A stretch of 64,000 nucleotides of DNA from Candidatus Omnitrophota bacterium (lineage in GTDB: Bacteria > Omnitrophota > Gorgyraeia > Tantalellales > Tantalellaceae), in assembly GCA_049643885.1 (NCBI GenBank), contig JBARQV010000020.1, forward strand, positions 10,670 to 74,669, given 5' to 3'. The translations under genes were made by a program, and so were the position numbers. Shown here piece after piece: positions 7,096-64,000 of the stretch. The notes under the pieces were generated by a model, which was not told the origin of the DNA, did not search any database, and worked only from the letters and a program-made list of their open reading frames with translations. Positions within the stretch are counted from its first letter, which is position 1, and each line of letters begins with the position of its first letter.

Positions 7096-10000
7096 ATGAA
7101 GTACTTATCTCAAAACGCCACAGAACGCCGAGACCCCATGGGCGGTAAAGAGATGCTGGCAAACAAGGCATTCAGGAGCCCGAAAGCCAGGCCATGGATG
7201 AAGACTATCTCGTGTGTCATCATCCTTACATTTCTCTTCCAACAGGTGGTCTTTGGCCAGGAAATAACCCCTGCGGCACCAGCCGAAAAACCCATTGTAG
7301 TTAACGGCCGTATCGATCTCAGGCAGGTCTCTCTTCCGCGTGATATCGCTATCACTAAAGAAGTGAGCATGGCCAAAAGCGAAGAGATTATCATCGATAT
7401 AAAGGACGCCCACGACAATTTCGGCGCCCAGGAGTCCATAGTCGCGGCGCTTGAAAACCTCCTTATAAATTACGACGTCAAGTTCATCGGGGTAGAAGGC
7501 TCTGAAGGGTTGATCGATATGGGCCTGATCTCTTCTTTTCCCGACGAGGATATCAAAAAAGAAACCGCCGAATACCTTATGCGCCAGGGTAAGATATCGG
7601 CCGGTGAATTCTTCGCGGCGACCTCAAAGACGCCCATAATGCTCTACGGTATAGAAGATACCGATCTTTACCTCAGGAATTACACTGATTTTATAGCCCT
7701 CCATGAAAAGATGAAAAGTAACCTCAAGTATGTGGACGGCCTGAGAAGGGCTCTGTACGCGCTTGAAGACCACGTGTTTTCGGAAGAACTCAAAACTCTT
7801 AACAGGAGCTCGATCCTCAGTAAAAACGGGAACAACAGGTTCACCAGGCGGTGGGAGTATATCGAGAACCTCGGCAAGAAATACGGCGTCAGCATAGAAG
7901 AGTATGAAAATATCAGGGCCTTGATACACACGATGGTGATAGAGGACTCGATAGATTACAAGGCCGTCAACGCGCAGAGGGAAAAGCTCCTGGACATACT
8001 GACCAAACGGCTCCCGAGGGACCAGCTCGAGGAGCTCATCCTCAAGAGCCTGAACTTCAAACTCGGCAAAATATCGAAGAGCCAGTTCTATACTCACCTC
8101 TTGTTCCTTGCTAAGGGGGAGGAACTTGACAGGGAAACCTATGACAGCATCGAGGTCTTCTGCGATTTTGTGAACACGTATGAGTCTATAGACATCGGCA
8201 CCCTCATGGACGAGATCGATGAATATGAATGCAAGATAAAGGATAAGCTTTTCACAGGCGAAGAGGACCGGGAGCTCACGCATCTTTTAAAGAACGTGGA
8301 GATACTCCATAATCTTTACCAGGTCCGGCTTACCAGCGGACAGTTGAAGTATTTCCGGGAGAACAAGGAAGATTTCAGCTCCGAGATATTCCTGGATTTT
8401 ATAAAGGATACGTACCAGAAATACGGCATGCGCGTCCCGGAAAACCTCCGCAGGAACACGTATAAACTCTTCGAGATGCTTCCCCAGGGTATAGACTTTT
8501 ACGAAGCCGCCACCAAAAGGAACCGCGCTATGGTCGACAACACCATAAAGCAGATGCGGGAAAATGGTGTTACGGTGGGAGCGATAGTGACCGGGGGGTT
8601 CCATACGAGGGGCATATCCGAGGTGCTTAAGTCCGATGAGGTCTCTTACCTGATACTCCTGCCCCGGTTCAACGCTCGGAACAACAAACGCCCCTACATA
8701 ACCGTCCTGACGAACAAAGCCGCTGAGTATAAGCATTATGTGGAATCGGGCAGATACCTTGCCGCGTCCTCTTACTTTTCGATGATGCAGGGTATTTTGG
8801 AAGGCTCCGGCCAGGAGGATACGGCCCGCAAGACAAGACTTGAAGCCCTGGCCGTCATGATAGGCCTGTACAGCCAGGGAAGGAGGGAGAGAGGCACGTT
8901 CAGCCAGAGGATACTGAACAATATGAAAGAAAGGCTCATGGATCAGTTCAAGGCGGGCCAGGAGCAGAAGCTGAAAGCGGGACAGATCACCCAGGGACAA
9001 TACGAAAGCCTGGTAAATGAGATGGAGACGCTCCTGGATAATACGTTCGTGACCTGGAAAGGAGAGGTTCCCCAGGTATTTATTAAGTCCACGGAAGGCA
9101 ATTTCATGTATGCCGTTGAAGCGGAGAAGGTGGAAGGAGAGACAAAACCCGTTGTTATGCTCGCCGCGTATGATGGCATTTCGGGTAAAAAGATCGAGAG
9201 CGTGAAACTGGAGAGCCAGATAATGGAGGCGGAGCTTGCCGCGGGAGAAGCAATAGACATGGGCAAGGAACTCTTAGCCAGAGTCCAGAAACTGAAGAAC
9301 GAGCAGTTTTTAAAGAGGTTTGGCATTGAGGCGAAAGCCCAGCTGGAAATAGAGATACTCAAAGGCAAGCTGGCCGATGCCGAAGACCTTCAAGAATGGC
9401 TCGAAACTAAGCTGACGAAAATGGCGAACGCCATGCGTGTCGATAAAGGACAGGTAGAGGCCGAAGCCCAGAAGATAATAAGTAGCCGTGTAGAAGAACT
9501 GACTGCCACCCTTGCCCGGGCAAGAGAAGGGGAAGTGTCCCCAGCCAAGCGTGTTGGCGAAGCGGTAGCGACAAGAAAAGCCGCTGATGATCTAGAGAAG
9601 GAAGTCAGGGCAAGCAAAGAATTTCAAGATCTCGTAGCTAAAGCAGAAGAGCAGAAACCCTCGGATATGATGGGGTCTATCAAAGTTGTAAAGCACGATT
9701 TCAAAGGTACTGGAGTCGCCGCGTTCAACTACCGTGAAGGGGAAAGGACTGGCATCCTCAAAGAAGGCAGGACATTAGTTGTAGCGCTCAACCAAAGCTA
9801 TATAGATGAAGCGGTTAAAATGCTCGAAGCGGCAGGGATAACGGAGATCACCGTGACCGTTGTCGAAAGGAGGCGGAAGAAAGAAGTCAAGATGTCCGTG
9901 AGGGAAGCGCTTGAACAGGAACTTATAGATCATGAGAAAAAAGAGGATCACTGGGTAGCAAAGCGTAAGGTCGGTGAAAGGCGGGGGCACATTCTGGCAA

Positions 10001-13000
10001 GCGCGGAAACTGCTCTAACATGGAGAGCAAAAGAGTTGGGCGGCCTTTCTTTGTTCCATTACATAGAACTTAAAATGATGGGATTTGAACAGCTTGAGGC
10101 CCTGGCAAGAGAGGACAGGACTGACCAGCATAAGATACTCAAAAGTGCGAAGATGGATCAAGCCATAGGTTATGAAGAAAATATGCAAAAGGCCGCGAGA
10201 GAAGAGGCCGAGCGCAAGATGTCCCCAGAGGTCAAGAAAAAGAGAGAAGACGCCGCGGTCCTAGCCAAAAAAGACGCTGTCGATAAAGTCAGGGGCGTGT
10301 TTGTCAGTATACACACGCAGGTACAGGCCGAACTGAGCAAAGTCCAGGGCCTGATCGATTCAGGCAAGCTTGATGATGCAGCGAGCCTTATGAAAAAGAT
10401 ATATTCAAGGCTTGAAGATCAAATAAAAGCGGCAACGGGTAAAGTAGGAAAAACATCTCCGGAGATGCTCAATGAAAAGGCTGTCCAGGAAGCCCTGGAA
10501 ATGGCTGAGCTAGCTCCTAATGCCCTGAATAGGGAACTTTTAAGATCGCTTATGAACCGCGATGCGGGAGCGTTTCTAACGGCCTTGGGGAACGCTCAGA
10601 AGGGCCTTGACCTGGACGGAAGGCCTATAAAAACCACAGCGGATGCGGAAAGGGCAATGCAGGAGGCGAAGAGAAGACAGGAGGCCGCATATGGTTCCTG
10701 GCTTGCAGCTGGATATGAAGACCTGGCCTTTCAGTATATGAGACGCGCGGGGGATAGGTATAAAGACAGGGTCATGATAGAAAGTCTTGGCCGTGAGATT
10801 AAGATCAATACAGGCTTCTTATTATTTGATCTCATCGATGCCGTCAACGGTTACCGGCAAGGAAAGGTCAATGCCAATGTTATTATGCTTTTGACCCAGC
10901 TTTATCAGGTATCCCTGGATGCTAATGCTGAGGCTAAGGGAACTAAGGCGGCCAAATGGGCCGATCATCTGATGAGCGGATTAAAAAATGCGCAGGAGAG
11001 GGCGAAAGACCCTAAAGACCCGCTTCTGGAACAACGTAAGGATAAGGTCAGGAATCTTGATATTGGTAGTTTTATGGGTGAGATCGGCGGGATCATAAAA
11101 GTAGCGCGTGGCGAAAAAGCTAAGGCAGTCGAAAAAGCCCCAGCCGCCCCGGCGGCAGCAGCTGAAATCGAAACAACAAGTTCTGAATTCGCGAGCAATG
11201 TGATGAAAGCGGTCCAGGCCAGACTCGATGCTATTGTGGGTAAAGGCAAAATAGCTGCTAAAGTTCGGGAATACATCGCCCGTAATTATGTAAAAGTTCT
11301 GGGCAGGAGATACAAAGCTATAAGCGCAGACAGAATAGTCCCTGCGATAAATATTTTAATGAGAAATGAAGCGGAAGTTATAAAAATGCTCGAGGAGGCG
11401 CAGACCAGGGTGCTTGAAGCGCTCCACGAGGAAGCTGTGAAGTTTTATGATGAAAAGATCGCGATCCACGTTTCCAAAGCGAAAACTGCCGCTGACTACC
11501 TGCAGGAAGAAGGCTTATACAGTCAGCTGAGAACAAAGATGCAAGCCGCGATAGAAGTGCGTAAAAAAGGCGCCGAAGCAGGTGTTATTCTACGCGAATC
11601 CGGGATCATTGAAAAAATGGATAGCCTGGAGACAGATGGAATTAAAATGGCGGATGATGGCATAACAACGGCGCAAAAACGTCGTGCGAAATTAGCCGAG
11701 GCAGAAGCAAAGAAAAAAGTCGCCCCTGCCGCACCGGTCGCAGCTAAGGCAGAGGCGGATAGACGAGCTGCCGAAGCTAAGGCAGAGGCAGATAGAAAAG
11801 CCGCTGAAGCCAAAGCTAAGGCAGAGGCAGATAGACGAGCTGTTGAAGCAAAGGCAGAGGCAGATAGACAGGCCGCTGAAGCCAAGGCAGAGGCAGATAG
11901 AAAAGCCGCTGAAGCTAAGGCAGAGGCAGATAGAAAAGCCGCAGAAGCCGAAGCTAAGGCAGAGGCGGATAGACGAGCTGCCGAAGCTAAGGCAGAGGCA
12001 GATAGAAAAGCCGCTGAAGCAAAGGCAGAGGCAGACAGAAGAGCCGCTGAAGCCAAGACAGAGGCAGAGAGACGAGCCGAAGCAGAGGCCGAGGCAAGGA
12101 GAGAAGCCGAAGATGCCGAGGCAAGAAGGGAAGCCGAAGATGCCGAGGCAAGGAGGGAAGCCGAAGATGCCGAGGCAAGGAGAGACGCCGCAGAGGCCGC
12201 GGCCAGAGCCAGGGCTGAGGACGACGAGTGGGTAGCGGCTGAGCAGGAGATAAAGGATCTAAAGGCAAGGATCGAAGAGACCAGGGCTGATGCCAAAGCT
12301 GCGCGGGAGAAGGCTGAACAGCTGCAGGCAGACACCGGAGTGGCCATTTCCCCGGAAATGCGGGATGCTGCACGTGATGCTAAAGCGCGCCTGGACGCTG
12401 TCCAGAAAGATCTGGATGAAGCAGAAGCGGCAAGAGAAGAGGCCGCCAAAGAAGTAGACGATTTAAAGGAAAAAGCAGACGACCTGGCCAAAAAGGCCGA
12501 AGAAGCCGAAAAAGCCCCCGCCACCCCGGCGGCTGTAGTAGGAAAAGCGATCAGTCCCGAAGTACAGAAGGTGTTAGATGAGGGCGGTGTCGAGAGGTTT
12601 ATAGAAAAGAGGTTAGGAATTATTAGTCGTAATGAGACCGCTAATGCTATTCTTATGCTGGAAGAATTTTGTAACAGTCTTATCGAAAAAGGCATCGATC
12701 CGGCATCAGTTTTTGACGCCAAACAATTGTCAGATTTTAAAGCAAATATGGCTAACGGAATAGCACTTTTTAGCCAAATTGCGACTAATAAACAAATGAA
12801 AGCAACAGATTTTGCTAAGCAACTTGATGCTCTGATTATTGATAAGACATCTCCAATTGCCTCATCCTATTATGAACTTTTTGCAAAGTACATAAACATG
12901 GCGGAGCCAACATCGGCAGGTAGGGAAGCACGAGCTGGTAAAGTAAAAGAAGCGTTTGCTATGGCTATGGCTGGATTTATCAGAAGCGGTCTTGTGAATG

Positions 13001-16000
13001 CTATTGATGCTATTGAAAAAGGCCCTGCCGCTGAAGCCGCTCCCGCGGTAAGCGTCGCCGACCTCAAGGCAGAACTGGAAAAAGCAAAAAAAGAACTGGC
13101 CGCCGCCGAGAAAAAACTCACCGAGCAGCAAGGTAAAAAGTCCGAGAAGGAAGACGCAAGGAGCCAGGCCGCTGCTGCCGTGGCCGAGGCAGAAGCCAAG
13201 CTTGAAAAAGCCCTGGCGCAAGCGCCGGCGGAAGAAATGCCCGAGCAGGCCCGGGAGTTAAGGAAAAGGGCGGAAGGAGCGGAGGCTCAAGCGGGAAATT
13301 TACAGGAAAAGCTTAATGCCGCCATGGCAAGAGTCGAGAGAATGGCTCAGGCGAGAGCCGATCGAGCAGCGACTTATGAAGGCGCGCGTGAAGCCGCTCG
13401 CGAATCAGCGAGCAGGGACGCGAAACGCGAAGCAGAAAGAGAAAAACGCAAAGAAGCACGAGCGACAGCTGAAAAGCGTCTGGAAGAGAAAGAAGAAGCG
13501 GACAGGGAAGTTGAAAATCTTTCCGAAGAATTCAAAAATGCAAAGCAGAAACTTATCGAGGCGGAGTGGACAGAGATGGTGGCCGAGAAAAAAGCGGAAG
13601 ACACGGAATTTAAAGACGCATTGGAACAGGCCGCCGCCAGGGCGGAAAAGCCAAAAACGGATAAAGAAGTCAAAGTCGCCGAAGCCGTTAATGTCTTTGA
13701 TGAAATTGAATCCAGCCAGAAAGAGGCGGAACAAGCGCAGAGGGAAGAAAAAGACGCGCAGGAACGCTTAGATCAATGGAAAAACATTGCGTCAGACGTT
13801 AAGGCGCGGGTCGAGATATCGGAAGAACTTCAAAAGGATGAAGCTAAGCGGCTGGAAGCGGACAGCGCGCGTGAAAAAATGAAAGAAGCACAGGATAGAG
13901 TCGCAAGCCGCGAAGCTGGTATTAAATCGGTGGAAGATGCTGCCGATCTTATGGAAATCGACGTAAAGAAGCAGGCTGAGAAGGTCGCAGACGCGGACAT
14001 AAAAAGACTCCAGGGCGAACTTGCTTTTGCTGACGAAGAATTAGAAAATTCGGAAGAAGCACTTAAAAAAGTCAGGCAGCGTCTGCAATCCGAGGACGAA
14101 ATAGAAAAAGACGCAAAAGGAAGGCTGACCTCCGATGCTGCCGCAAAAGTGTTGCGTCTCGAGGATGCACTAGCCAGGAAAAAAGCAGAAATAAACAATA
14201 AAGTAGCTCTCGGTCTTGGTGAATGGGGCAAACTGGGATTGAATACCGGAGATCCTAAGTTAAATGCTGAAAGAAAGGCAGCGAAAGCGAAAGCCGAAGC
14301 CGCACGAGATGCCCTGGAGGAGGCGTTGGAGAAGGCACTTGGCAAGGCGAGAGAAGAGGTGAAAAAAGAATACAGAAAGGAAATCGAAACGCTTACCGAA
14401 GAAATAGGATCCAGAAAGGAAGAAAAGATTTCACTGGCAGCCGATATAAAAGGACTGCAGGAAGGAAAAAAAGACGGGAGTATTGCTGAAAAAGCGCTTG
14501 ATAAGCGCGACAAAGATGACCCAGACGGGCGGACTTTTAGGGAACAGATAGAAATGCAAAGAAGACAGGCGGAGTTAGATAGGAAGGACCTGGAAGCGGA
14601 GAAAAATAAACTCGAGGAAGCGGAAGAAGCATATTATAAAGTAGTCGATGGAATTGAGGTTGAGGTCGATGAGGAAATAGGCAGGCTCAGCATAAGACAG
14701 GCGAATGAAAAATTGGCGGAAGCGGAAGAATCGGCGCGCCTCGCAAGGGAAAAAAGAGAAGGGCTTGATAAGCATTTACAGGAAGTTACCGAAAAGGCGG
14801 CAGCAGCGGCTGTGGCAGCCGGTCTTCAAATTGTCGGCGGAAGATTGGTGTCTCAGGAACTTATAAAGGTAAGAAGGCAATATGAAATAGCGCAGAAAAT
14901 AAAGGCAAGGCGAGAAGGAAGAGTCTCGGAACTTGAAAAGAAACTCGCGGAAGCCGAAAAAGCGTCCCGCGAAGCTGAAGCGGAAATTGCCAAAGCAGAA
15001 GAAGCCGCTCCTGAAGAAAGAGCCCCTCCTGAAGCCAAAGAAGCAGAAGCCCCTCCTGAAGCCAAAGAAGAAGCCCCTCCTGAAGTCAAAGAAGAAGCCC
15101 CTGCCCCTGAAGACGCTACTGCCCGTGCCCGTGCCAGGATAGATAAAATACTGGCTGAAAGCACCAGGGCGGAAGCCATAAGCCTTCTTATCGTTCTTTC
15201 GAGAAGCGATGACGCTATCGAGGCGAAGCTCGCCCGGGAAGCCCTCGGCAATCTTCTTGAAGGCAAAGACAAGCTATCGGGCGATGTCAATAACCTTTTG
15301 ACTACGAGTGAAGGCAGGGAGGAGCTGCTGGTAATATACAACCGCCTTCGCGGTCAAACCCTTGACCCTGAAATATCAGCGGAAGAGCTTGCAAAGGTAC
15401 AGGAGTCCATAAAAATAATCGAAGCGATCCTTTGGTCCGCTTTACTGAAAACCGCAGATCCTGCTGTCACCGAAGGCGCGATTGATGTAAGCCGCCGTCA
15501 TATAGAAGCGGTGAGCGCATTACTCCAATCAAGAATAAAAAGGTTAGGAGCTGAACTTGATGATCTTCTCGCAATGGGAGATCAAAAGAATCCGATAGAC
15601 CTTCTCAGGCAGATAAGTGAGGCCAGGAGGATTGAAAAAGAGCTCAAGGCATGTGAAACCGCCATTAAGGATATAAACGATCGCAGGATCAGTCTCATGT
15701 CGGATACCCAGGTCCAGCTCAGAGATGAAGACGGGAAATTCATATTAGAGGATGTGTATAAAAAGATCGATGAGCGTGAGATCGAACTGAAACTCGCAAA
15801 AGACAAACTGACACGACTCAAGTCCAGGAACAGCTATTTTCTAATGACCATCAAATGGGGCTCGAAAGAGACAAAGAAAACGCTTGAGGATAAGAAACCG
15901 CTGGAGGCCGAAGGCCCGGACGGGAGGACATATTATGTCAATGCCTCGACAGGCCAGGCGGATAGATACAGCCAGGAAATAGTAGATGAGGCGTCCAAGC

Positions 16001-19000
16001 TTCGCGACGAAGTTTTGGGCATGAGAGAGATCGCCAAAGCCGTTGTAAAAAAGATGGCCTGGTGGAGGTGGGGCTCATTGGTAGCCTTGGTAACCGGAAA
16101 GAAAGCAAAGATCCGGAATGAGCTGAAGGACAGGCTGCAGGAATGGGCGCTACTATTGATGGAACTGCTTCCGAAAGAACAAGCGGATAGATTCAAGGAT
16201 GAACTGAAAATAATAGGCGAATACAACGAAAAAGAAAAGACGTTCACGATTCATGAAGGTTTCGATTTCAAAAATGCCGTCGATATTATAGATTATCTGG
16301 CCAAGGTATCTATGGTAACCGTCGGCATGAAGACCGAAGAGAGAACGGAAGAAGGAGTGACGAGAAAATTCTATTCATTCGATGATACGGCCGTTTCGCT
16401 GGGAACCGTGGACAAGGTATCGAAAGAAGTCGGTTCAGTCATGCATAAACTTAACCAGATACTGAATCCCGAACCAGTTTCCGATGAAGTCGATAAAGTC
16501 AGCGATGAACAAAAGAAGAAGGCTCAAGAAAAGGCCACTAAAGGGTTCAGCGACCTTCTTGTCAGGATCGACGAGGCATTTGGCGGCAGGCTCGATGCTG
16601 CCAAAAAGCAGAACCTTGTGGATGCAAAGAAGCTTATCGGTGAAATACTTGAAGAGGTAGAGAAGAAAGTAAGCCGCTCGGGCGTAATAATGACAAAGAC
16701 CCTCCAGCTCATCAAACTTTTAGATAATGTTGTTTACGGAAATTCCATTGGCAAAATAAAGGAATTTCTTGAGGTGCAGCTCGGAGTCGACAAGATCATC
16801 GAAGAGAAGGACATCGATGACATTATGAGAGGGCTCGGCGTAGATGATAAGGCGGAAATAGACCAGTGCGTAAAACACGTCCTTGAAAAAGTGGACAACA
16901 CAAAGAGAAGAGAAAGGCTTGCCGAATACATTGTAAAGTTCATGCTCACCGGACATATTAAACCGGAAAAGATGGAGTTTTTTAACGTGAGCCCGGCAGA
17001 ACGTCAAGGTCTTATAGACGAAATAAGTGTAGGCATCGAGTTGAGTGAAATGATCCGCGAGAGAAAGGAGGAGATCGCTGAAGAGCTGAAAAAGAGGAAA
17101 CAGCGTTTTTCCGACCCGAATAACAAGGATAACGAGCTTGTATACGAGTTCGTTGCCCTGTACCAGATGTCCGCTCTGCTTATGAAGGGCGAGTCGCCTT
17201 TCATCGAGCAGGTCCTGACGGGTCTTTTCATGGCCGACAGCTTTTTTGTGGATATGGCTACCGGAGCGGGGAAAACGCTTTCTTTTCCTCTGGCGAACAT
17301 GCTGACCAGGTGCAATTCGGACGGCGGGAAGCATCCCGAGGGGCTCAAGAGCATGCATCTCGTCACGCACGGTTATTATACCGAGAGGGATTTCAGGGAA
17401 ACACATTTCATTTACAAGATGATGGGATATAAAGTCGCGTATCTTACTGACGAAGACAGGGAACTTGAAGCGGCGCACAAGTCCCTGGGCGATAACGATG
17501 TCGTTATAACTTCCTATTCAGCCCTTAGTTTCCTGTGCCTGGAAGCGGGCAAGATGGACAATCCCAAGAGCAAAGACTGGTTCGAGCTCCTGCAAAAGAC
17601 AAGGCTTACCTTTGACGAATGCGATGTCGCGCCGAGACTTGCCGATTTCATAACCGCGGCGATGCAGAACAAGTTGAGTTTGAAAGAATACATGAAGTTA
17701 CACGTGCTTTTCAAGACCGCCGAAAAACTGCATGAAAAAGGAGGAATAAGCGCCATATACTCCCTGTTCGAAGATAATATCGTGGGCGTCCTGGATAAGC
17801 AGGACAGGGCAAATCTTGATAAGCTTCGGAAGATGCTGGGGTTTGAAGAAGAGCCGGACCAGGTGGAGATAAACGATAAAGGGAACATCGTAATAGAAGG
17901 TAAGGAATATACGAAAAAACAGCTCAAAAAAGCCAAACAAATAGCCGTGCAGGGCTCCAAGTTTCTTGTTAAGCATTCGGATCAAAAGGGTTTTGTTTTC
18001 ACCAGGATGGAATACACCGCCCCGGTGGATCTCGACCCGCGAAAGGTTAAAAAGCGCATGGAGGATACCGGTAAGACCGAAGAGGAAGTAGAGGAAGAGC
18101 TCCGGAAAGAAGCCCTCGGTGCCAGCGGGGCGAAGATCGACCTTGTCTCGAGGAGCGCGTACGGGAACGAAAGCACCAAAGATATGGTGGCCGGGATAAT
18201 GCGCAGTATCACGTTCGGCCTGACCAGTACCCTCGGTAAGGAAGTCATAGAGGATACACCGACATGGCAGGAGTTCCTGGATGTCGTCAAGGTCCTGTAT
18301 GTAGACGAGGAAAACGTCGATTACAGGCTCAAGTACCAGGAAAAGGACGAAGTGCCCGCTATTTCGGTAAGGGAAGTCGACGGTGAAGCGGTTGTGTTCA
18401 AAGGAGAACAGATCGTCGAACCCGCTTTTAACGTGGAACGCCGCGCGGACGGTTCGGTCCGTATCGGGGATGAGACGGCGTCATATGTCATCAGCGATCA
18501 GTTTTTCAAACAAAGAAAGACCGATGATGAAAGGGTCATCTTTCTCGGTGGTAAACGGTACAGGGTCTCAAAAGGCAAGAAAGGCGGATACGAGCTCCAG
18601 GAAGTCGCTATGGAGATAGTCCTTCTTGATGAACAGACAAAGAGGGAACAGGGAAAGCAGAGGAAGGATACGTTCCACACGCTTTATGAGATGAAACACC
18701 ACCTGAAGAGAGACAGGCCGGATACGCCGGAGATAAGGGGCGATAACAAGAGTTCTGACCAGTGGAATATCGCTAACGTTGTCGATAAGGCGCATTCACT
18801 CGGTGGCGCCAGCGGATCGGTCAAGGACGCGGCAAGGGTGATGCTTGGTTTCTTCGGGAAGAAATGTAAACCCAGGATAAAGAAACTGCCCCCGCCTATC
18901 GCCAAAAAGGGAGCGCATAGACAGGGCATTTTCGTGCCGAGTGACAAAAGATTGTGGCAGGTAACGCTTAACAGGATAAAGCAGATATACACGCTTTCCC

Positions 19001-22000
19001 CAGGGGCGAGCATGATCATATACTTTGACGATATTGGCCAGGCGAAGGAGTTCGAGAAGGAACTGAATAAGATAGTGGACAACGAGGAATTCGAAAAATT
19101 GGCGGGTGGGAAAGTGAATGTGAACGTGTTCGACGACGAAGGACAGAAGGAAATAGACCTTGTCGAGCAGGCGGGAAAACGGAACACGATAACTTTAGCC
19201 GATTCAAAGCTCGGCCGTGCGACCAACGTGCGGCTTGCGGAAATTGTGGGTTTTAATCCTGCCAATTCCTCAAAAGCCCTAAGGGAATATTTAATGAGGA
19301 CACTTATAGATGAACCTGTCAGCAGGGGGGAAGTGCTGAGTGATGAAGAGAAACAAAAAACCCTGAAGACAATCGATCATTACGTCAAAGAATTCGTAGG
19401 CGTCCTGGCAGGTGTGTACCAAGAAGACGGGAAAGATAACGTAGGACTTTTTTATGAAACGGATGTCGCTTCGAGGGAAGTGAAGAGGCGCAAGGTGGAA
19501 GATTTCCTCAGGAAGATCGGCGTGGGTGAAGAAAGCGAGGTCTGGGATATAGTAAGAAGAAAATACATCGACGGACTATTTCTCATAGACCTTTCGCCGG
19601 ACGGCAACCTGCAGGCGAAAGAACAGAAGTTCGGCAGGAACATGAGGGCGGGCGATACAGGTTATGTCGATCCCATATATTCCCTACAGGAAGAGTCGAA
19701 GTTCTACACGATGGTCATGAAGCTGTACGATAAAGATTATAACCAGCAGTGGGGCCCCATACGCAGGTGGTGGAACGGAAGAATATTCACCGAATTCCAG
19801 AGAAATGTCGAAAGGCTGAAAGCGCTTGAGGAGAAAATGTACGATGAAAACGGTCATCGCAGGGCCGATGTGACCGAAAACGATCTGAATGAATGGGTTG
19901 AACTGCAGAGATATTTTTCGGATCTTCTGCTCAAGGTAAGGGTGGAGTGGCAGAGAAGGGCCGATAACGCGGCTATACGGGAAGTGAATAATAAGAGAAA
20001 GATGAGAGAAGAGCTTGAAAAGGTGAGTTTAATGCTCCCGGAGTTTTATAAAGCGGTTGAAGTTGATCCGACAGTAGCCGATGATCTAGTGATAAAAAGA
20101 CTGGAAAGGTTATTCGACAAGTATTTTGACCTGGAGCGCATGGATAAAGAAAGCGGAGTGATCGACCTTAAGGACTTGATCGGCACTATCGAACAAGAGT
20201 TCAAGCTGCGTCTCAAATTGTCGGAAAAGAGGAACCAGATCACTTTAAATCCGACAAACGATCAAGAAGCCAGGGACGAGCTCCGCTGGCGGCGGGACAT
20301 GTATATGGCGATATTTTTAAAGGCGATCGGCTCACTGGGGAGCGTAAGGATGAGCCCGAGAGAAGAGACAGTGCTTCAGGCGGGAAGGGACGCTTTCCAT
20401 CTTGAGATCGACGAAAAAGGTGTGTTAAGCCTCAAGTCACTGGTGCGAAATCAGCCTGACGGGTCAAAGGCTGAATTCAAAGCGGAAGAGCTGCCCGATG
20501 GTTCAGTGATCATCGCGGGGAAGGAATACGATGTGGTCCGTGAACCGGGCAGTGTTAAGTTGGTCGATCCGGAAACAGAACAGATCCAGTGGGAATTCAA
20601 CATAAAAGCTGGCATAAACGCGGCGGGCAGGCGGTTCTTCGCGGTGACTCTGGCGGGAGCGTATTTGGAAGCCATCAAGGAAGTATATAAGAACGGATTT
20701 GAGGCGCTTAAGTCGAAGATCATCCGCGAATTCCGGACTTACGGAAAAATAGTCAAGGTAGACACTTCAGAGAACGGCCTGGCCGATAGCGCGGAGGAAC
20801 AGGCGCTTGAAAGTTATAAGGACAGAGTCGCCGGCACTGCGACTTATGATACCGAGGCGTCTTTGGCGGTGATCGATGAGGCAGCTGAAGATATTGATAA
20901 AGGACTGGAGGAAGTTGGCGATAGACTGGCAAAGGAAAGGCAAAAGGATGAGGACCAGGGAGATAAGAGGTTGGAGAACGAACGCGGATGGGTTCCCCTT
21001 AAGCAGGAGGCCTCATCCAGAAAAGCGGCGAAAAAGGTCGAAAGAAAGGTAAGGGCGCCCCATGAACATGAAATGGGCCTGGAGATCCCCGCGCAGATCG
21101 TGGCTTCCAGGGAAAGAAATACTGATGAGGATTGGCATACCAGTGAGGTGGACCTTGATGAGGAATTTGAAGAAATGGAAGTAGAAGGAGAAAGGCCTTC
21201 CGTGGCTGCCGATGACGTGTCTGTTGCTGTGGTTGAAAAAGACCTCGCAAGAAAGGCCGGTAAGGATGATACTGCGAGGAAAGACAGGGAGAAGGAGAGC
21301 GTTGCCGCTCACAGGAGAAGGATCGTAGATGAAGGCGTGATCGATGTAAAGCATGCCGAGGGAGCGGTTGTCGCCACGAATAAAGGTGAAGTAAGACCCG
21401 TAAGCGAAGCCGAGGTGATACAGGGCGCGGACATTATAGCAGGGACGACTCCCGCCAAACCGCCTGAGCAGGTCCTGTCTGAAGGGGGAGTCGTTGTTTT
21501 TACAAGTGAAATGGCGTGGAATGAGCTTGGTGAAGCCGGACAAAAAGAGCTTATAGGAGAACTCCGTGAAAGGTTTCCCGGCATGTATGTGACATTCGAA
21601 GGCTGCGCGCCGAGAGGCGGCGCGCTCGGCACAGAAGAAGGAAGAGTTAATATTACAGGCCTGCGTGTATTCCATCCTTCCGCCGTGAAGGCGCTGGAGA
21701 AGGAAAAGGCGTCATTTGAGGATGAAGCTTTCAAGAAGGCGAAAGCGGGTGCCGAAAGAAGAGGCGAGGCGTTTACAGCGGACGAAGGTGGTGACGTGGT
21801 ATCACAGGAAAAGCTTGAAGGCGCTTTAGGCATTTCACCCAAAAAGGGTGAAAAAATATCCATCAGGAGGGTAGGAGATTCGTTTTTTCTTGTCGCCGAC
21901 ACGAAAGACGGTATTGTGGTGAGAAGTCTGGGTGGAGATGTCTATGGCCAGACAAGGCTTGCCATTGTCCGCGCGAACGAAAAGCTTTCAGCTAAGGACG

Positions 22001-25000
22001 AGGAAAGCGGGAAGAAAGGCATACAGGAGGGAGAATACGTCCTCGATAAAGACGGTATTTACAGTAGATCCACGGGCGTTCCCGGAGAATATGTGGTTAA
22101 ATTCGATAATATAATCACGGACAACGTTCCTGAAAAAGAGGTTATAGAGAGATTGCCTATGCCGCTGAAAGAAGCGCCCGGACCCGCGATATTAACGGGC
22201 GGTGTAATAGGCATCCCGCGATATTTAGGTACCAGTATCTTATCGCTCCTGAGAGGACTCAGGGACAGTATCGGTGATGCATGGGACTGGTTAATAGAAC
22301 GGCATCAATTGGTGCAGTCAAGATTCGTGACGTCCTGGAGAAATGTCTCGGGTATCGGGAGCGGACTTATTTTTGGTCTTTGGCTGTTAAGAAGAGCTCT
22401 TGGCATTCCCATGGACATCCTCAAATTCATATTTCATGATACAAAAAGACGTTTCGCTGTCCTGGGAGAGTGGATAAACGCGCGGTATAACAGAGCGATG
22501 TCCGAGATGGAACAGAGATGGAAAAGGGAAGACCCGAAGTACCAGCTCAGGGTTTACAGGCTTGAAGCGGTCGCAAAAGACAAGGACGCATCGTGGGCGT
22601 CAAAAGCCCTGGCGAATGTCAGATTATGGTGGCTTGGAAGGAGACTGGGGAGATGGAAGGGCACAGGATGGCATATTGCCCTGCGCGCGTATCAGGGCGC
22701 GCTGTTGGCCGCCAGAGCCGCCCAGGGGGTGTTATGGTTAGGGAAGAAAGCGGTACAACTTGTAACTTACGGGTGGTTTTACTGGCCCTGGTCAGCTTTG
22801 GATAAACGGCTCAAGGCCAGGCGGGCAAGAAGGGAAGTTGAACCAAAACCCGAAGAGGTCGTAAATATCCGGTTGCCTGATACTCTTCGCACGCCCGGGA
22901 AGCCTTCCGAAAAGGCCGAAGAAATAACAGATCTGGCCGAGAGTCTCACGGGCGAGAGGCTTTCCGGGGTTGAAAAGACAGGTCTCTTGGACAAGTTGCG
23001 GGAATACCTGGAGGCGGAAGGAGAGTACAGGTACGCATTAGGTTTCGGCGATGTCGGCGGGATAGCAAATATACTCGCCGATATGTACTTTTACGAAGTA
23101 AACAAAAAACCGGAGCATAAAGATTCTGCCGCCCGGTTGGGCCGCACGCTCTTTGGATTACACGAAAAAGAGGCGAAGGCCGCAAAAGAAGATGAAAAGA
23201 ATGAAATCCAGAAAAAGAAAGCCGAAAGGGCAAGGATACTCGCACAGAATTATATCGCCCTTGCGTCCGCATTAGACAAAAAAGACATTGACGTGAAAAC
23301 ACTCAGGGCGGTCACGCTGTACGCGGCCGGAGATAAGGAAGGCGCGAAAAAGATACTTGATAAGATAAAACTGGGTAATATACCCGACAGGGACGTCAGG
23401 AGGATGGCTTACGCTACTATGGCAAAGATGCTGGAGGATGAGAAGGATTATAATAGGGCCGCCGGTATGATCCAAAAAGCGAAGGGTTTGACGGAAGAAG
23501 ACAAAGTGACCGTGGCCGGTGAGGAGATAGAATTATCGGTGAAAAAACAGGGCGAACTTAAGAAACAGGCTTCGGAGAAAAAAGAAGAAAAAGTAAGCTT
23601 GCTTAATAGGGTAAAGAGGTTACTCTTCCCTGAAGCGGGGGCGTCTAAAAAACAAAAGGCAATAGGATTCGGGATATTTGTTGGGCTTTTCCTGCTCGCG
23701 ATATTGGCCCCGCAATTCCTGCCTCTTGTTTATTTGGGTTTTACGGCGCCTCCCGTTGTAACGGGCATTTGGAGCCTTGTTGCTATATCAGCACCGGTCT
23801 TTTATAACAAATTGCTTGTACAGTTAGCCATGTGGGTATTCAAGTACGCTGCAAGTCGGGTCAGGAACTGGACGACTAATAATTTTACACTGGGAAGGAT
23901 GTTGGCCCGCGAGATATCCGCCCAGAAGCGGGCGCCGGAGAAGGCAGAGCCGAGGATAAAACTTGTGAAAGCCTACGAGGAAGCGGGCGAGCAGAAAAAA
24001 GCGGAAAAACTTATCAAGAAAACCATGCGGATGATAAGAAAGGACCGCATGAGTCCGGAAGAAGCGGCGAAGTTTATAGAATATTTATTGGAGAAAGGCA
24101 AGGTTGACGAAGCGAAAGAACTTTTCATCCGCATTTATCCTCGCGTACCGGTCGATAAGGTTCCCGTGCCCTTACTGATACTCAGGGCGAAGATGGCCCT
24201 GAGAGATGAGCCGCTGGACCCGGTGAAAATGGCCGGTGAGCCGGAAGACCCGATCGAGATAGCCGCCGCAAGCGCCGACGGGGTCTTAAGCAGGGAACCT
24301 GAAAATGCCGAAGCGCTTTTATTGAAGGGCGAAGCCCTGGCCAAGAGATTTGAGAAGGAAGAGAAAAAAGATAAAAAGACGCCGGGCGAGTTCAATGATA
24401 TCCTCGCGAAATTGACAGAGCTTACAGAACGGGGGCTCCTGACTCCTGAACAGGAAAGGAGGGCCAGCGAGATGGAGATAGCCAAAGCCGTTAAGCCCGA
24501 AGATAGCGACAGGGCGGTCTGGAAAAAGGCCAAGGAGACAAAGGTCGGTGAGGCGGTCCCTGAAAAACCCAAGATGGCCGAAGAGCCTGCCAAGCCCGAA
24601 ACTCATAAGCCCGCGATGGAAGACCTGGAAAAGCTTAAAAAGGAGAAAAAGCTGAGCCCGTCAGATCGCCTTGCCCTTGCGGTGCTTTACATGGAAAACA
24701 AAGACTGGCGGAAAGCCCTTAATCTGCTACGGGCAATGCCGCAGGACGCGCCCGAGAAAGCCGAGGCTTTAAAGAGGATGGCCATGTGTTGCTACAGGAT
24801 GCTTGAGGATCCCAAATGGTGGTACCTCACATTGATAACGAGATTGAGGATGACGTCCGCGATAAACGGTCTGAGGAGTATCAAAGGGCAGGAAGAATGG
24901 GCCGACTGGATCGAAAGCACCATCAAAGGTTTTGACATTAGTAAGGCAAAGGCCGCGAGCGAGAAGATATCATATACTCCCAAACCCGAGGACAAAGAGC

Positions 25001-28000
25001 TGACCGGTGAACAAGGTTTAAATAACGAACTATTCACACTCGGCGTCGAAAGGGCCATCGCTTCAAAGAAGGACGAGATCGATACCGTCAATTGGGTGGG
25101 TGGCATTTTGAGCGAAGCGCAAATACCCGAAGCAGAAAAAGGGAAAATGCGGGCAAATCTGGACAAAAAGAAGAGCGCGGCTGCATCAAAGGAGTTACTC
25201 CGGGATATCCAGAAAGAGAAGAAAGCTAAATACGTGATGGTAAGTGATCTGCGAAAGCTAAGGAACAGAAAACGCAGGGCATTATCGGCGGATGAGAAAA
25301 TGTCTTTGGGTAGACAGATCGAAGAAACAGAAAAAGATATCAGTGACAAGCGCGCGAGGATATTGAAGATGTACACAGAACTCATCAATCAAAACGCGGG
25401 AAGGCCTGAGGTCATAGAGCAAGTAAGGAGGGAAATGGCCTCGGAGATCGGTGAGATAGCCGGTATGATGAAAAAAGAGGAAGATTTCACCCCGGAGAGA
25501 TTTACAAGCATCATTTTAAGCTTGGATGACAGGGTTTTGGTGGAAGATCTTTCGGAAGGAGGCAGGGATGCCTACGCTCTATTTTTAGAAAACTGGACAG
25601 AGTATATGGGGCAAAAACTGGGCATGTCCTATGAAAAAGACAAAGTGCCTGCAGAGCTTGAAGTAGGCAAAATGGACGTTTTCACGCAGCAAGTGACTAT
25701 GCTTCTTTTGATGTATCCCGGCGCAGATGAAAACCTTAAGCGGCAGATAGAAAAAATATTGAAAGAGATCTCCGGATTCAAGCTTTTCGGAAATTGGGAT
25801 AAAGAGGAAAAGGAATACACCCGGAAACCGATTTTTGACGTCATAGCCAGTATGATCCGTAGAAAAGATATCCCATCACTCCGCTTCCTTTGGGCGGGAC
25901 TCCAGATCGCGGAAGCCGGGAAAATAAGCAAAGATGATCTTAAAGAAAATCTCAAAGATAGGGCTGACGCGGCGCTACTTTTAAACGCGCCTTTAACCTC
26001 TTTAAAAAGCAAGGTTGTAGATCCCAAACAAGATGTAAGAGAAAAAGCGTTCAATCTGCTGTTATCTATAGTTAATTTCTGGTTCGGAGACGGCGCTGAT
26101 CGTGCGGTAGATGAATTGCTTGCTGAAATCATATCGAAAGAGACGCTTACCCCGGACGATATTAGCAGGATCCAGCGTGTGCTTGCTCAGGTAAGACTCA
26201 TGCCTGTTATGTATGATAATCAGAGGCAGTTTATCGAATATCTGGTGGGGTTAAAAGAGGTGCCTTTGAACAAGAAATTGGAAGCCATCGATAAGTGCGG
26301 TCTTTCGCCCAGGGAGAAGCTTGAGGTCCTGATCTCCTTAATGGAAAAAGAAAAGTTCACGGGAGACGACCTTTATATCGCCCTTGATAACCTGAAAAAA
26401 CGGACCGGCGAGGTCGAGCCGCAGGACCTGAAGGATCTTGAGAACAGTTTAACCAGGCTTCTAGAGGCTCTGCCCCCCGACAGGGATGCTCTTGTCAAGG
26501 GGATAGAAGTGATCAATGTTATTTCATCCAAAGCGACTAAGGAAATACCCATTGCCCACAAGGGTGTTTTTGAGACGTTAAGGCCCAGATTGGAAAAAGT
26601 TATGCTGGAAGAGATGAAGAAAAGCGAGAAGGCCGAGGTCGGACTTATGCTGGAAGAGATCGAACGCCAGGAAGCGATCGCGGCAAGGTTGGGGGAAATG
26701 GGTGAATACGGGCAAGCCCAGAAAATACTGGAAAAGGCGATCGAGCGTTTGAATGATGTGCTTAAAAAGAATATGGAATTAGCGCGAAAAGGAGAAGAGT
26801 TATATGCCAAAGACCAGGTCCTCAGGTTAGTAGACAAGGTTAATGTTCTTACCGGGAAGGTGACAGAGTTTTACAGAAGACAGGGTAAACATTACGAGGC
26901 GGAAATACTTGTTGTCAGGGGATACAGGCTCCTGGCCGAGTACGGGATAATCGTGGAAGGCCTGGCGGATGTTTCGGAATATACCCAGAAGGCCGAGGAA
27001 GCCCTGGTGAACGCGAACATGCTCAATCCCTACCAGCCGGAAGTCGCGCTGGAGATGATGAGGATAAAAGCTTTGAGTCTCAGGGTAGCGAGACGGGAGT
27101 TAGAAGAATCCGAAAAGTCTGTTAAAGAAGACGAAGAAAAAAAGGAAGAAATGGATTCTCAAATAGCGGCTTTGGATGAAGAGATAAACAAGGCAAAAAG
27201 TGATCTAGACCGCAAAAGAAGGATAAGAGATGCCGAGTTTGCCCTGAGGGAAGCCCAGGCGATAGCCGGTGACGAGCGCGCGGAGCAAAACATCCGCAGG
27301 CAGGAACTGGAAAAGGAAATGGAGCCTATAAAGGTCCCTGAAGATAAGAAAAGAGCCCTGGAGCGGGACAGGGCGGATGTTGAAGCCAGGCTGGACAAAG
27401 CGCGCAAGAAGAGAGACGCCTTAAAGAGTAGGGAAGTACACATACTTACTTATGAAAACGCGCCGATCGAAGAGGGGGCAGAATGGGCTTTTACGGTCTT
27501 GTCGAGGAGCGGGTATGACCGCGAAAAAGCGGAAGTAAAAGAAGCCATAGGATTTCTTGCTTCCCTGCCCGCCGGTTATGACGGCAGGATATTGAGCGGT
27601 ATAGGCCTTATGAGGACAAGGGCGGGCGCTTTGAGTGGGAAAGACAGGCATCAACGGGACGCTTTTATAGATAACCTTATTCTTGATATTTATTTCAGGG
27701 GAGATAAAACGAAGATGCTCGAGGCGATAGATAGTATAGTAAAAGCCGCCGAAGAAGGGAAAACCGAGATAAACATATTCGGCGGGGATTTCAATGTGAA
27801 CTTTGTCCTGGGATATATAGTGAATAAAATGAACCAGGTCATTAAAGAAGCTCCTGAAGAAGAAAAACAGAAACTGCAGAATGAACTTATCATCAAGCTG
27901 ATAGACGCGCTGAAGAGGATCCGGAGGCTTGATATGCCTTTCCTTGAAGCGGATCTATTCTCCAAAGTTTATACACAGCTGGAAGCCGAAAAAGACGAGG

Positions 28001-31000
28001 ATCTCAAAAAAGCCGACCAGTGGGATATGATGCTCAGGAGTCTTCAATTATTACTCCAGAAAAAAGGCCTGCCGGGAGACATCCGGACAGATAACGACCT
28101 GATGGAACTTATAATTGCCATGTTCGACAAATTAAGAAAGGATAAAAAGGAATGGGACAAGTTAGGCGAGCGCGACAAGACGGTGCTTGTAATGGATTTT
28201 AATATTGAAAGAGAGAGCGCGCCTGGCGAGATCGAATCTATTGTAGAAGAGAGAAAAGACACGGCAAGGCTTCCCATGTACCGAAGATTGGCTTCCTCCG
28301 GCGATATCGAGGAGAGGAAAGCGGGCATTATGGCTCTGGCTGAAATGGAAATGAAGAAAAGGGACCCGGATTATGATCTTGTAAGGGACCTGGCGGAAGA
28401 ACTTGCGGAACTTGATTCCAAAGAAACCAAAGCGAAGTGGTATCTTGCCTTTGCTTATTTCAGGGGCGGGAATAGGTTAACATCCGACGGTAAAGAAGTC
28501 GCAGGTTATTCAAGGGAAAAAGCCAAAAAGCTTATGGACGAATATCTAAAGACCCCGGAACCGGCGGAGGAAGCCCGCAGGCTCATGGGTGACATATACA
28601 AGGTGGAACAAAACGACAGGTTCGGGACTAATGTCAACTCCGAAGGGAATAATCCGGAAGCCTATAAATATTATATGGGCGCCGTGGAGCACCTGGTTAA
28701 GAGGTACAGGGAAGAGAGAGCCAAGGGGAACGATAAAAAGGCCAGCATGTACCTTATCGAAGCGATAGGCAACCTGGACATGGCCGTCACGACAAACCCG
28801 AGGAGCGGCGCCGTACGGGTGAAAAGATCCAGATTGCTCATGGATATGGGCGAGAACGATCTTGCCAGTATGGACATAGAGACCGTTACGCGTATCAGGG
28901 ATCTTAAGCCGGAAGAGAGACTTTTCGGGCTTATAGTTACAGAAGAAGACTTTAAGGAGGCGGACTTGATACAAGCGGACCTTGAGGGAAATAATGAAAA
29001 AGCGATAGATATATTGAAACCTAAGGGATGGTTTGCTTTCTTAAGGCGCGTTCCGGCGCGGGTAGCGGCAAGATTATCAGAAAGGTATGGCCGGCTTGGG
29101 GAAAAGAAATTGGCCGATAAATATAGAAAACTTGCGCTTAAAGCGGTCGAGAAACGTAAAGAAGAGATCGATACCGATATCTTGGATACTATGGCCGCAA
29201 GAAGGGAAGCTGAAGGGACTTATGAAAGCTTGACCGAAGCGATATCCTTGCGTGAGATGAGAAAAGGCCGGCCCGGCGTGAATGATGAAACCGAGAATAA
29301 GCGTATCGCCGGGCTTAAGATCAAGCTTGCGCGTGTTGAAGGTCCTATTTCCTTCTGGAAGAGAATAAGGTCCGCGGCCAGGCAGAAGGCGGCCCAGGAA
29401 GGCCGTGATGAAAGAAGGAAATTACTGAAGGAGGCGAGAGAAGCAGATGCCGAAAGGGCCGCGGAAATTGACGTTGCTTTTATGAATATCAATTACGAAG
29501 AGCTGGACCACCTGGAAGATCTTCAGGAGCAGTACGAAAACTACGCGAAAAAAGCCCGCTTCATGAAATTTATAAGCCGCAAACGCGAAGATGTAATGGA
29601 CAAGATATTGGAGCTGCGGGCCGATAACACGGAGCTGGTTTACGCGAAATTCGAAAGGAATGAAGTCCCCATCGGGGATGTAGAGGTCTTTCTGGAAAAC
29701 CTGGAAGAATATGCGCTTATTAAAGGGAGAAGCGTACCTGACAAATACAAAAAGGTGAGGGCTAATGCATTGGTCCAGAGGGGCAACCTGGCTTTTAAAG
29801 CAGGAAGGTATGCCGAGGCCCGTGATCTGTATAACGAGGCTATAGCGGAGGATCCCGCGAACTCAAAAGCGCATTTCGGGAAATATCAGGTCAGCAAGAC
29901 GTTGAGCGACAATTGGACTAACCTTACCTTTACAGAGCAGGCGGCAGAAGCCCTTAAACAGGCGCTTAAGCTCGATCCTTCTTTGGACGGCGCCGAATTG
30001 CAATATTCAGGGGAACTTATCGGGATCTACCTGGATCAGCTTGGAGATGCCGCTTCCGCGGATGAAGTAAGGCAAGCGATGTTAGCACGCGCTTTAAAGG
30101 AAGAGGTCGAACCGTCCAAAACGGTGATAAGCAGGGAGAAAGACAAGGCAAGCGCGCTTGATGCGATGGTGCGGGAGCAGATGGAATATGACGAACTGAA
30201 TAAGAGAATAAAGGAAAAAGAAAAAGAACTCGAAGCGATCACGAAAGGAGACAAAGATAAAAAAGGAGAGAGACCGGATTATGTCCGCCTGGAAGAAAGC
30301 ATCAAGATAGACAAAACGGTCAGAGACAAAAAAGAGGCTTCCCTGGAATCGAACAGAGGTGCTTTTGAAAGGCTTGCCGGGGATATGAAGATGTTCAACC
30401 AGGTGATAGGTAACGCTCGGGGCATGCCGGCGGATGAGGGAATAGCGTACCTGGAAGCGTTTTATTATCTCCTCGGTATCAATCGTTTACTTGAAGACAG
30501 AAACATCCGCGACCGGATCGATCTTGCCCTGGCGGAAGCGTATAACAAGAAAGGTGGTTTCGGTGAAGCGCGCGAAAAGGTCGATCTTCTTATAAACACA
30601 ACCGATATCCAAAGTATTATCTCAAGCATAGTATCAGATGATATTCCCGTTCCGGAAGGGTCACATCTCAAATTGGTCATCGAAGCCCTCATTCTCAGGG
30701 CCGGACTTTCACTTAAAACAGATAAACCGGAGAGATTCATGAGTGCTGTGTCGGACATGAACTCGGCTGTGCAGATCATCGCAATATATAATTTGATCTA
30801 TGGTACAAAATTGAGTGTCGGTGAAGCGTATGCGAGGTTCAACGATATACTCACGGAAGCCCGGAAAGCCGATGTGTCCATAGCCGATAATACGGATATG
30901 AAGCGTAATATATTCGGTATATTTATGGCCCTTGCCCGTCTCGGTGATGACGGAAATGCCGCGAGTAACGTAATGCAGGTGGCTTTATCGAGACCCGGCG

Positions 31001-36274: not shown

Positions 36275-36434
36275 TATATAGTAATTAGACGATAAAAAAG
36301 GCAGTTAGGGTTATTTATCGTCGGGAAAAACGACTTGGCAAAGAAGACTTGGCAGCAGCTTGGTAAATGACTTGGCAGACTTGGCGAAAAAGACTTGGCG
36401 AACAAAAACTTGGCAAAGAGGCTTGGCGAAAAAT

Positions 36435-64000
<27,566 letters not shown>

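Follow-up and report, generated by a model that had tools for sequence, protein, structure and literature searches.

In-frame tandem repeats encode a predicted alanine-rich helix, a candidate spacer, in a giant protein of an Omnitrophota bacterium

The element described here is a pair of adjoining tandem repeats within g2, the middle of three giant genes on a 64,000-nucleotide (nt) stretch of DNA from Candidatus Omnitrophota bacterium (GenBank assembly GCA_049643885.1, contig JBARQV010000020.1, positions 10,670 to 74,669). This whole stretch is referred to below as the window, and all coordinates are window coordinates unless another locus is named. The two arrays are probably the core of an approximately 200-residue, approximately 30-nm helical rod that would serve as a lone semi-rigid spacer in an Omnitrophota giant protein with a signal peptide and transmembrane regions, a reading to which we give a probability of roughly 0.6. 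The tandem repeat itself is genuine, in frame and moderately diverged. The limits of g2 were taken from the open reading frame (ORF) list and a stop-to-stop scan, and the features that make up the predicted rod are as follows:

7096..35367, plus strand: g2, 9,423 residues, the gene that holds the repeat, middle of three tandem giant genes; the NCBI fragment P0001 shares its start ATG
11719..11742, plus strand: Pro/Ala hinge VAPAAPVA, directly before the helix, non-helical and of low confidence in the AlphaFold2 model
11731..12336, plus strand: predicted continuous alpha-helix, g2 residues 1546-1747, 202 residues, approximately 30 nm, with arrays 1 and 2 as its core
11743..12084, plus strand: array 1, ten in-frame units AKAEADR[R/K/Q]AAE, two of them lengthened by AK or AE, g2 residues 1550-1663
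12085..12192, plus strand: array 2, four in-frame 27-nt units [E/D]AEARREAE, g2 residues 1664-1699, net charge approximately -2 per unit
approximately 12337-12354, plus strand: second break GVAISP, residues 1748-1753, after the helix, non-helical and of low confidence in the AlphaFold2 model

The first-pass annotation of this DNA had reported an in-frame repeat of approximately 150 residues at this place, made of about ten 33-nt units followed by four of 27 nt. Tandem Repeats Finder together with parsing bears out the position, the frame and the length, as the two arrays together span residues 1550-1699, or 150 residues. Array 1 does contain ten units, but manual parsing on the peptide gives 33 nt for only eight of them; the other two are 39 nt long, one lengthened by GCCAAA (11809-11814) and one by GCCGAA (11947-11952), and the tenth unit is degenerate (AKTEAERRAEA). 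The four 27-nt units were found at 12085-12192. All of the unit lengths (27, 33 and 39 nt) are divisible by three, and the frame is that of the 7096-35367 ORF. Tandem Repeats Finder describes 11742-12079 with a period of 33 (9.9 copies, 80% matches, 7% indels) and also with a period of 138 (2.4 copies, 89% matches, no indels), the latter being the better description of array 1; the second array is reported at 12084-12203 with a period of 27, 4.4 copies and 90% matches. Array 1 is the top-scoring tandem repeat of the window, and its unit consensus has six matches at three or fewer mismatches against 0.00 expected from 100 shuffles.

The units had also been called perfect or near-identical, which is not the case. 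Mean pairwise nucleotide identity is 86% over all ten units of array 1 and 89% over the first nine, and the only identical pairs are units 1 and 7 and units 2 and 8. Exact internal repeats reach at most 69 nt (11742-11810 and 11952-12020, 210 nt apart); several of 32 nt also lie inside the array, one of them at 11989-12020. Within the array, k-mers of 71 nt and above are all unique. A CRISPR-like (clustered regularly interspaced short palindromic repeats) or regulatory DNA repeat is excluded, the copies being head-to-tail, without spacers and in frame within a 28-kb ORF. A 399-residue antisense ORF at 11523-12722 was likewise rejected as a by-product of the stop-poor repeat codons.

The structure of the encoded segment was predicted with AlphaFold2 from the single sequence as a monomer, the helix occupying residues 47-248 of the model, and its length was calculated at 0.15 nm per residue. 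The model contains one unbroken helix over g2 residues 1546-1747, with a predicted local distance difference test (pLDDT) score of 90-97 over the repeats and below 50 in the flanking hinges, in agreement with the earlier description of a long, highly charged, Ala-rich alpha-helix. The 150 repeat residues comprise 42% Ala, 56% charged residues and 0.7% large hydrophobics, the last being a single Val, and there is no Gly or Pro inside the array. Opposite-charge pairs occur at 0.17 per residue at i+3 and 0.28 at i+4, against 0.04 and 0.09 for like-charge pairs, and the ion pairs within each 11-mer are K2-D6, E4-K8, E4-R7, R7-E11 and K8-E11. The periodicity of Ala is 2.2 (11/5), so that Ala surrounds the helix and no seam is formed, while a periodicity of 3.5-3.7 is absent for every residue class in the 150 repeat residues. 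A canonical heptad coiled coil is excluded by the single Val in 150 residues, the units of 11, 13 and 9 residues, the missing 3.5 periodicity and the missing hydrophobic seam. Scans of the repeat against Pfam and NCBIfam returned no family, and a Foldseek search of the helix model against the Protein Data Bank (PDB) gave generic helical hairpins only, at E>0.1.

The segment had been labelled ER/K-type. ER/K motifs have a very high content of Glu, Arg and Lys, which make up roughly three quarters or more of their residues. In g2 these three residues account for a fraction of 0.46 in array 1 and 0.53 in array 2, with Ala at 0.44 and 0.36. Because Glu, Arg and Lys come to only 46-53%, the segment is not a canonical ER/K motif, and by its composition it would be placed nearer to an Ala-based (EAAAK)n helix. 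The predicted structure, the composition and the ion pairs point to a single-helix or TolA-domain-II-like spacer, and not to a canonical ER/K motif or heptad coiled coil.

In the reading that we favor, an Ala-based helix would be stabilized by i to i+3 and i to i+4 ion pairs without a hydrophobic seam, would be bounded by Pro/Ala hinges, and would most likely stand alone as a semi-rigid single helix. Such a rod would set a constant separation between, on one side, the conserved N-terminal head and an orphan helical module (residues 60-1540) and, on the other, the modules further along the chain, namely a globular module (1815-1963), charged helices (1970-2700) and a SecA-like ATPase (approximately 3324-3510). 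The array may have grown via in-frame duplication of 33-nt units and of multi-unit blocks (the 138-nt and 210-nt periods), and would since have been maintained by selection on the peptide pattern. In function it would be the same solution as TolA domain II. The rigid spacer suggested by the first-pass annotation is therefore plausible for a segment lying between modules, although its spacer role, like its monomeric state, is one that we infer.

Several points weigh against this reading. The content of Glu, Arg and Lys, at 46-53%, is well under that of canonical ER/K single helices. The matches to PDB sequences, weak and bias-prone as they are, point to helices that pack in assemblies: phmmer finds the C-terminal helix of QmcA/SPFH (E=2e-5), the cap-helix of the major vault protein (E=0.02) and V-ATPase subunit E (E=0.39), all with low-complexity alignments and high bias scores. 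The monomer AlphaFold2 run would fit a single helix and an oligomer-packed helix alike and cannot tell the two apart. As to the presumed cellular location, the N-terminal signal or anchor predicts export of residues 54 to approximately 5100, yet the same stretch includes an ATPase-like domain. Finally, HMMER searches of 1.84 billion representatives yielded no orthologue of the array flank to show that length matters.

The PDB matches are one reason to consider that the segment could instead be an oligomerization element. Here the 11-residue periodicity would give straight Ala stripes (A1/A5/A9 and A3/A10) for side-by-side packing with other molecules or with helices of the same chain, in a right-handed or untwisted bundle or barrel of the kind seen in SPFH/flotillin cages, the vault cap-helix and V-ATPase peripheral stalks. 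The hendecad unit and its Ala positions are consistent with such packing, as are the end of the long helix in the AlphaFold2 model, the last part of which pairs with the next helix as a hairpin, and the helical hairpins among the Foldseek matches. However, the PDB matches are of low complexity and limited to the helix, large hydrophobics are nearly absent, and the Ala period is 2.2 rather than 3.67, with Ala all round the helix rather than along one seam. The two 13-residue units would disrupt the hendecad register, and Pfam finds no SPFH (Band 7), vault repeat or other oligomerizing domain in g2. We regard oligomerization as a tentative possibility.

The age of the array bears on a second alternative. 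To describe the divergence of the units, the proportions of differing nonsynonymous (pN) and synonymous (pS) sites were computed pairwise between the nine regular units of array 1. Third codon positions account for six of the nine variable columns, and pS is 0.35 against a pN of 0.042 (pN/pS 0.12); when the R/K/Q codon is left out the values are 0.32 and 0.010 (pN/pS 0.03). The differences between units are therefore mostly synonymous, indicating that the peptide is conserved and that the array is not the product of one recent burst. The near-perfect identity from which a recent expansion had been deduced does not exist, and the 69-nt exact duplicate is the sole sign of a recent event. From these substitution patterns most copies appear to be old, with the peptide probably held by selection while silent changes built up. 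Nielsen & Lui (bioRxiv 10.64898/2026.06.07.730766) describe the nucleotide tandems of long Omnitrophota genes as mostly “dissolved” via synonymous change, and the synonymous divergence between array 1 units agrees with their account.

It could nevertheless be proposed that the array is a contingency locus, in which fast slippage or recombination alters the length of a surface-exposed rod and so tunes its reach or evades recognition, a behavior described for the tolA repeat tract and also for repeats in surface proteins. Any such ability to change length would be helped by the 27-, 33- and 39-nt units, which all preserve the frame, and by the 69-nt duplicate and the several 32-nt exact repeats, which are substrates for slippage or RecA-dependent recombination. 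There is a precedent in tolA, where contraction occurs at 6.9e-5 and copy number affects phenotype (PMC3477136), and the DUF3782 homologues discussed below vary in their copy number of identical peptide units. Against this, 35% of synonymous sites differ between units, so that most of the array is without recent homogenization or turnover. Six assemblies of the population are 100% identical across their overlaps, though none of them spans the array, and neither the flank searches nor the scan of JGI metagenomes found a contig with another copy number, no other contig spanning the array at all. On balance a contingency locus, though plausible from the tolA precedent, seems doubtful to us, and the hypervariable site of the first-pass annotation is at most putative.

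In a bolder version of the spacer reading, the approximately 30-nm helix would belong to a machine at the Omnitrophota cell surface and would provide reach or transmit force in the manner of TolA. With the conserved N-terminal head at one end and a membrane-embedded body bearing the SecA-like ATPase at the other, it would bridge either the periplasm or the distance to a host or prey cell. Its length would be tuned by gain or loss of 11-residue units, and it would be a molecular ruler specific to an episymbiotic or predatory lifestyle. This is speculative, and we hold it to be decidedly doubtful.

The way in which the array behaves in assemblies raises the question of whether its copy number is real, since the source scaffold was assembled from short reads and a likely mis-assembly point had been suggested. 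For the six assemblies of the population (one from ENA and five Logan runs), the match to the window extends over 1.3-20 kb. The array is reached by two independent contigs, each of which ends inside it. One encodes the NCBI metagenome-assembled genome (MAG) fragment P0014 (g2 residues 511-1572); this 3,186-nt contig corresponds to 8626-11811 and ends 1 nt past the 69-nt exact repeat. The other, the Logan k=31 contig SRR28062511_233, encodes the C-terminal 7,791 residues and ends at 11991, where the unique 31-mers run out ahead of the 32-nt repeat (11989-12020). Two assemblies of the same population stopping inside the array might suggest that copies were collapsed or mis-joined in the source scaffold. 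However, the breakpoints are the expected k-mer limits and not places of conflicting sequence, both partial contigs match the window perfectly over their extent (P0014 through units 1-2), and the reading frame is intact over 28 kb. Since the repeated k-mers of the array all fall short of 71 nt, ordinary reads of 100-150 nt suffice to resolve how many units the window contains. The array is thus a predictable fragmentation point for short-k assemblers that normal reads resolve. Nothing positively indicates an artefactual unit count, and we judge one unlikely. A separate break was observed at 36833, inside the N-terminal region of g3, which is the exact end of all five Logan (k=31) contigs with the PF05635 gene. 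It points to another repeat or a paralogue-shared k-mer splitting assemblies.

It is very unlikely that the segment is a disordered polyampholyte linker acting as a flexible tether rather than a rod, for while it is of low complexity, 56% charged and surrounded by Pro/Ala-rich hinges, it is also 42% Ala (the strongest helix former) without internal Gly or Pro, has an ordered i+3/i+4 opposite-charge pattern, and is predicted as helix at a pLDDT of 90-97 when the hinges fall below 50.

The rod lies in a protein that is otherwise almost wholly unannotated. The remaining features of g2 and its neighbors are as follows:

2-6910, plus strand: g1, more than 2,302 residues, 5' end cut
7198..7254, plus strand: N-terminal hydrophobic segment of g2, residues 35-53, MKTISCVIILTFLFQQVVF, a signal peptide or signal anchor by Kyte-Doolittle analysis, with a K/R-rich stretch before it
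7276..9195, plus strand: conserved N-terminal domain, approximately 640-700 residues, common to g2, g3 and at least 14 Omnitrophota loci (L007-L020)
14989..15102, plus strand: second low-complexity repeat in g2, in frame, 24/45-nt period, EAPPEAKE, a Pro-rich linker ending the charged helical region
17065..17625, plus strand: divergent SecA-DEAD-like ATPase region, g2 residues approximately 3324-3510
35567-35929, minus strand: PF05635 gene, 120 residues, four-helix-bundle protein of the 23S rRNA-intervening-sequence type, with no other small gene between the giant genes
approximately 36435 to beyond 64000, plus strand: g3, more than 9,188 residues in the window and 12,789 residues as called on the source contig, ENA ERZ23498717 scaffold_15 (87.5 kb)

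The hydrophobic segment at the N-terminus of g2 has an equivalent at that of g3, and the transmembrane clusters of g2 lie at residues 35-53, approximately 5527-5590 and 8844-8930. The charged, Ala-rich composition of the rod is shared by its surroundings, and the first-pass annotation had followed an E/K/A/R style across 9-16 kb. This composition is indeed marked, but from approximately 11.6 to 15.2 kb (residues approximately 1500-2700) and not over the whole of 9-16 kb, and it is broken at residues approximately 1800-2000 by a globular module of normal composition. In Pfam g2 matches only tetratricopeptide repeats and, weakly, DEAD (E=0.008), while g3 matches HEAT repeats. The ATPase region was recognized by NCBIfam TIGR00963 (secA, E=1.5e-12, far below the curated cutoff, residues approximately 3324-3479).

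The conserved N-terminal domain, the g3 copy of which lies at approximately 36700-38500, contains D-x-H, VEGSEG and TGGFHT motifs. Pfam and NCBIfam gave no match to it, and a profile search of PDB sequences was empty. Its AlphaFold2 model has a mean pLDDT of 76.7 and a weak Foldseek match to the erythromycin esterase EreC/BcR135 family (probability 0.8, E=0.085), and on this structural likeness the domain could be a Tiki/TraB/Ere-like hydrolase head. Every named homologue of the g2 domain belongs to Candidatus Omnitrophota (among them Ca. Omnitrophus magneticus, Ca. Tantalella remota and Ca. Makaraimicrobium), and two homologue loci are labelled Planctomycetia. Conservation among these relatives covers the N-terminal 750 residues or so only, plus residues 2773-4198 in Ca. 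Tantalella.

The 700 residues directly before the array (residues 850-1548, 9643-11739) are an orphan region: the full HMMER search found only its own fragments and a weak match to P0021 (E=3e-4), so there is no orthologue with which the length of the array can be compared. Word-index protein searches with the unique flanks of the array, with or without the low-complexity parts, returned nothing and missed even the identical fragment P0014, which looks like a limit of the word index rather than evidence of absence. An exact 24-nt flank scan of JGI metagenomes gave no match, and Rfam found no RNA family over the whole window.

The neighboring genes have features of their own. The g1 product is rich in Ala, Gly, Ser, Thr and Val, unlike g2 and g3, and has no Pfam match, but contains a Walker-A-like GAGKS and a DEAE motif resembling the SecA-DEAD region of g2. 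In g3, KKAAKKVAKK and PEAAA low-complexity repeats occur at 39570-39880 (residues approximately 1040-1150), at roughly the place of the charged helix in g2; their sequence is strongly basic and resembles histone H1 or AlgP. Further along g3, a 192-nt repeat of 2.1 copies with 88% identity (47622-48017) doubles a module of approximately 64 residues, and many further degenerate copies of this module (EKxxV...FY..R) occupy residues approximately 3300-3950. The sequence (A)CTTGGC(A/G) recurs approximately ten times at intervals of 9-16 nt in 36332-36465, immediately upstream of the likely g3 start (ATG 36435) and overlapping it, and at the relative L012 a 14-bp array of 3.9 copies (AACTCCCGGAGTTT) is found at 226-280, upstream of its giant ORF. 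The CTTGGC-type copies may form an array that binds a regulator of giant-gene expression.

The array is real but of an ordinary kind for such giant genes, and the current views of these proteins are unchanged by our results. Its practical weight is that it fragments short-k assemblies of the 28-kb gene, with the consequence that giant Omnitrophota genes of this type will be under-called in MAGs. The hinge-bounded rod of approximately 30 nm is a defined structural element in g2 and offers a tractable part of an Omnitrophota giant protein with which expression and measurement could begin. A repeat copy number that varied in nature would be a parallel to the tolA repeat tract.

The host protein can be compared with the giant proteins already reported from this phylum. 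West-Roberts et al. 2023 (bioRxiv 10.1101/2023.11.21.568195) described long Omnitrophota proteins with a signal peptide, transmembrane regions and SecA-DEAD, and g2 belongs with them by its Omnitrophota genome, divergent SecA-DEAD and several transmembrane regions; it also fits the signal-peptide and transmembrane class of Nielsen & Lui. At 9.4 kilo-amino acids (kaa) it is under the 10-30 kaa thresholds of both papers, and it differs from Archaeovorin-like proteins in being shorter than 30,000 residues and in lacking, by Pfam, their glycosyltransferase, methyltransferase, hydrolase and NUDIX content. A Tandem Repeats Finder survey by Nielsen & Lui 2026 found at least one fuzzy tandem repeat in 86% of such genes, the copies having diverged at synonymous sites. 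Spacers made of a coiled coil or a single helix are mentioned in neither paper. Among the relatives of g2, L012 has a charged helical stretch at residues approximately 1380-1510 (60% charged, no DNA repeat), L008 has one at approximately 1620-1700, and L014 contains an in-frame Ala/Glu/Arg helical tandem array of 48/60-nt units at residues approximately 800-880 (3438-3679). These stretches, unrelated to that of g2, all fall in the variable region that follows the conserved N-terminal domain. A different kind of repeat was seen in L013 (21205-21400), an in-frame 36-nt array of 5.4 copies with 99% identity that encodes the mucin-like TTVIPSESTEV.

The closest comparison is with domain II of TolA, an extended helix that lends the protein both reach and rigidity across the periplasm (PMC10666116). 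Strains differ in the copy number of the intragenic tolA tandem repeat, with effects on stress tolerance (PMC3477136). Domain II of E. coli TolA (residues 48-310, from NC_000913.3) is 40% Ala and 41% charged, and like the g2 segment it has an i+3/i+4 charge-pair bias and few hydrophobics. Both are extended helices rich in Ala, Lys, Glu and Asp that derive partly from in-frame tandem repeats; TolA contains AKAKAEADAKAAE where g2 has AKAKAEADRRAVE. The unit is of 11 or 13 residues with Arg in g2 and K1-2A3-4(E/D) in TolA, and the g2 host is a 9,423-residue protein of many modules. The SHLS-motif anchor helix of TolA is not in g2, the N-terminal segment of which has no S-H-L-S, nor does Pfam find the TolA/TonB domain III, and there are no tolQR neighbors, the window holding three giant ORFs and the PF05635 gene only. 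With these defining features absent, homology to TolA is excluded and the g2 segment is an analogue only.

The SPFH and vault cage proteins, whose helices gave the PDB matches, differ in that Pfam finds no SPFH (Band 7) or vault repeat domain before the g2 helix. ER/K-type single alpha-helices (myosin VI/X, caldesmon, INCENP and the CAF-1 KER) have been proposed to link domains as semi-rigid spacers or constant-force springs (PMC4183817, PMC5378345, PMC5347031). The g2 segment resembles them in its dense i+3/i+4 opposite-charge pairs and in having no hydrophobic a/d seam, and differs in its lower Glu, Arg and Lys, its high Ala, and in being bacterial and repeat-encoded. Helices of the ER/K class are monomeric in solution and melt non-cooperatively; for the g2 segment, what bears on this point is the monomer AlphaFold2 prediction of a helix at a pLDDT of 90-97.

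The nearest likeness in sequence was found in a different setting. A degenerate DNA pattern for AKAEADR[RKQ]AAEAKAEAD matched nine metagenome loci (L022-L030, JGI/NCBI), all of which encode small DUF3782/PD-(D/E)XK proteins of 221-245 residues. These carry the same units (AEAKAEADRRAAE) in tandem before a nuclease-like C-terminal domain, with a varying copy number of ADRRAAE/AKAEADRRAAE. They are unrelated to g2, and their Arg codons are CGC, CGG and CGT whereas those of g2 are AGA and CGA, so the likeness is convergent and does not stem from shared DNA. The recurrence of these peptide units in DUF3782 proteins makes them appear to be a generally favorable building block for variable-length helices.

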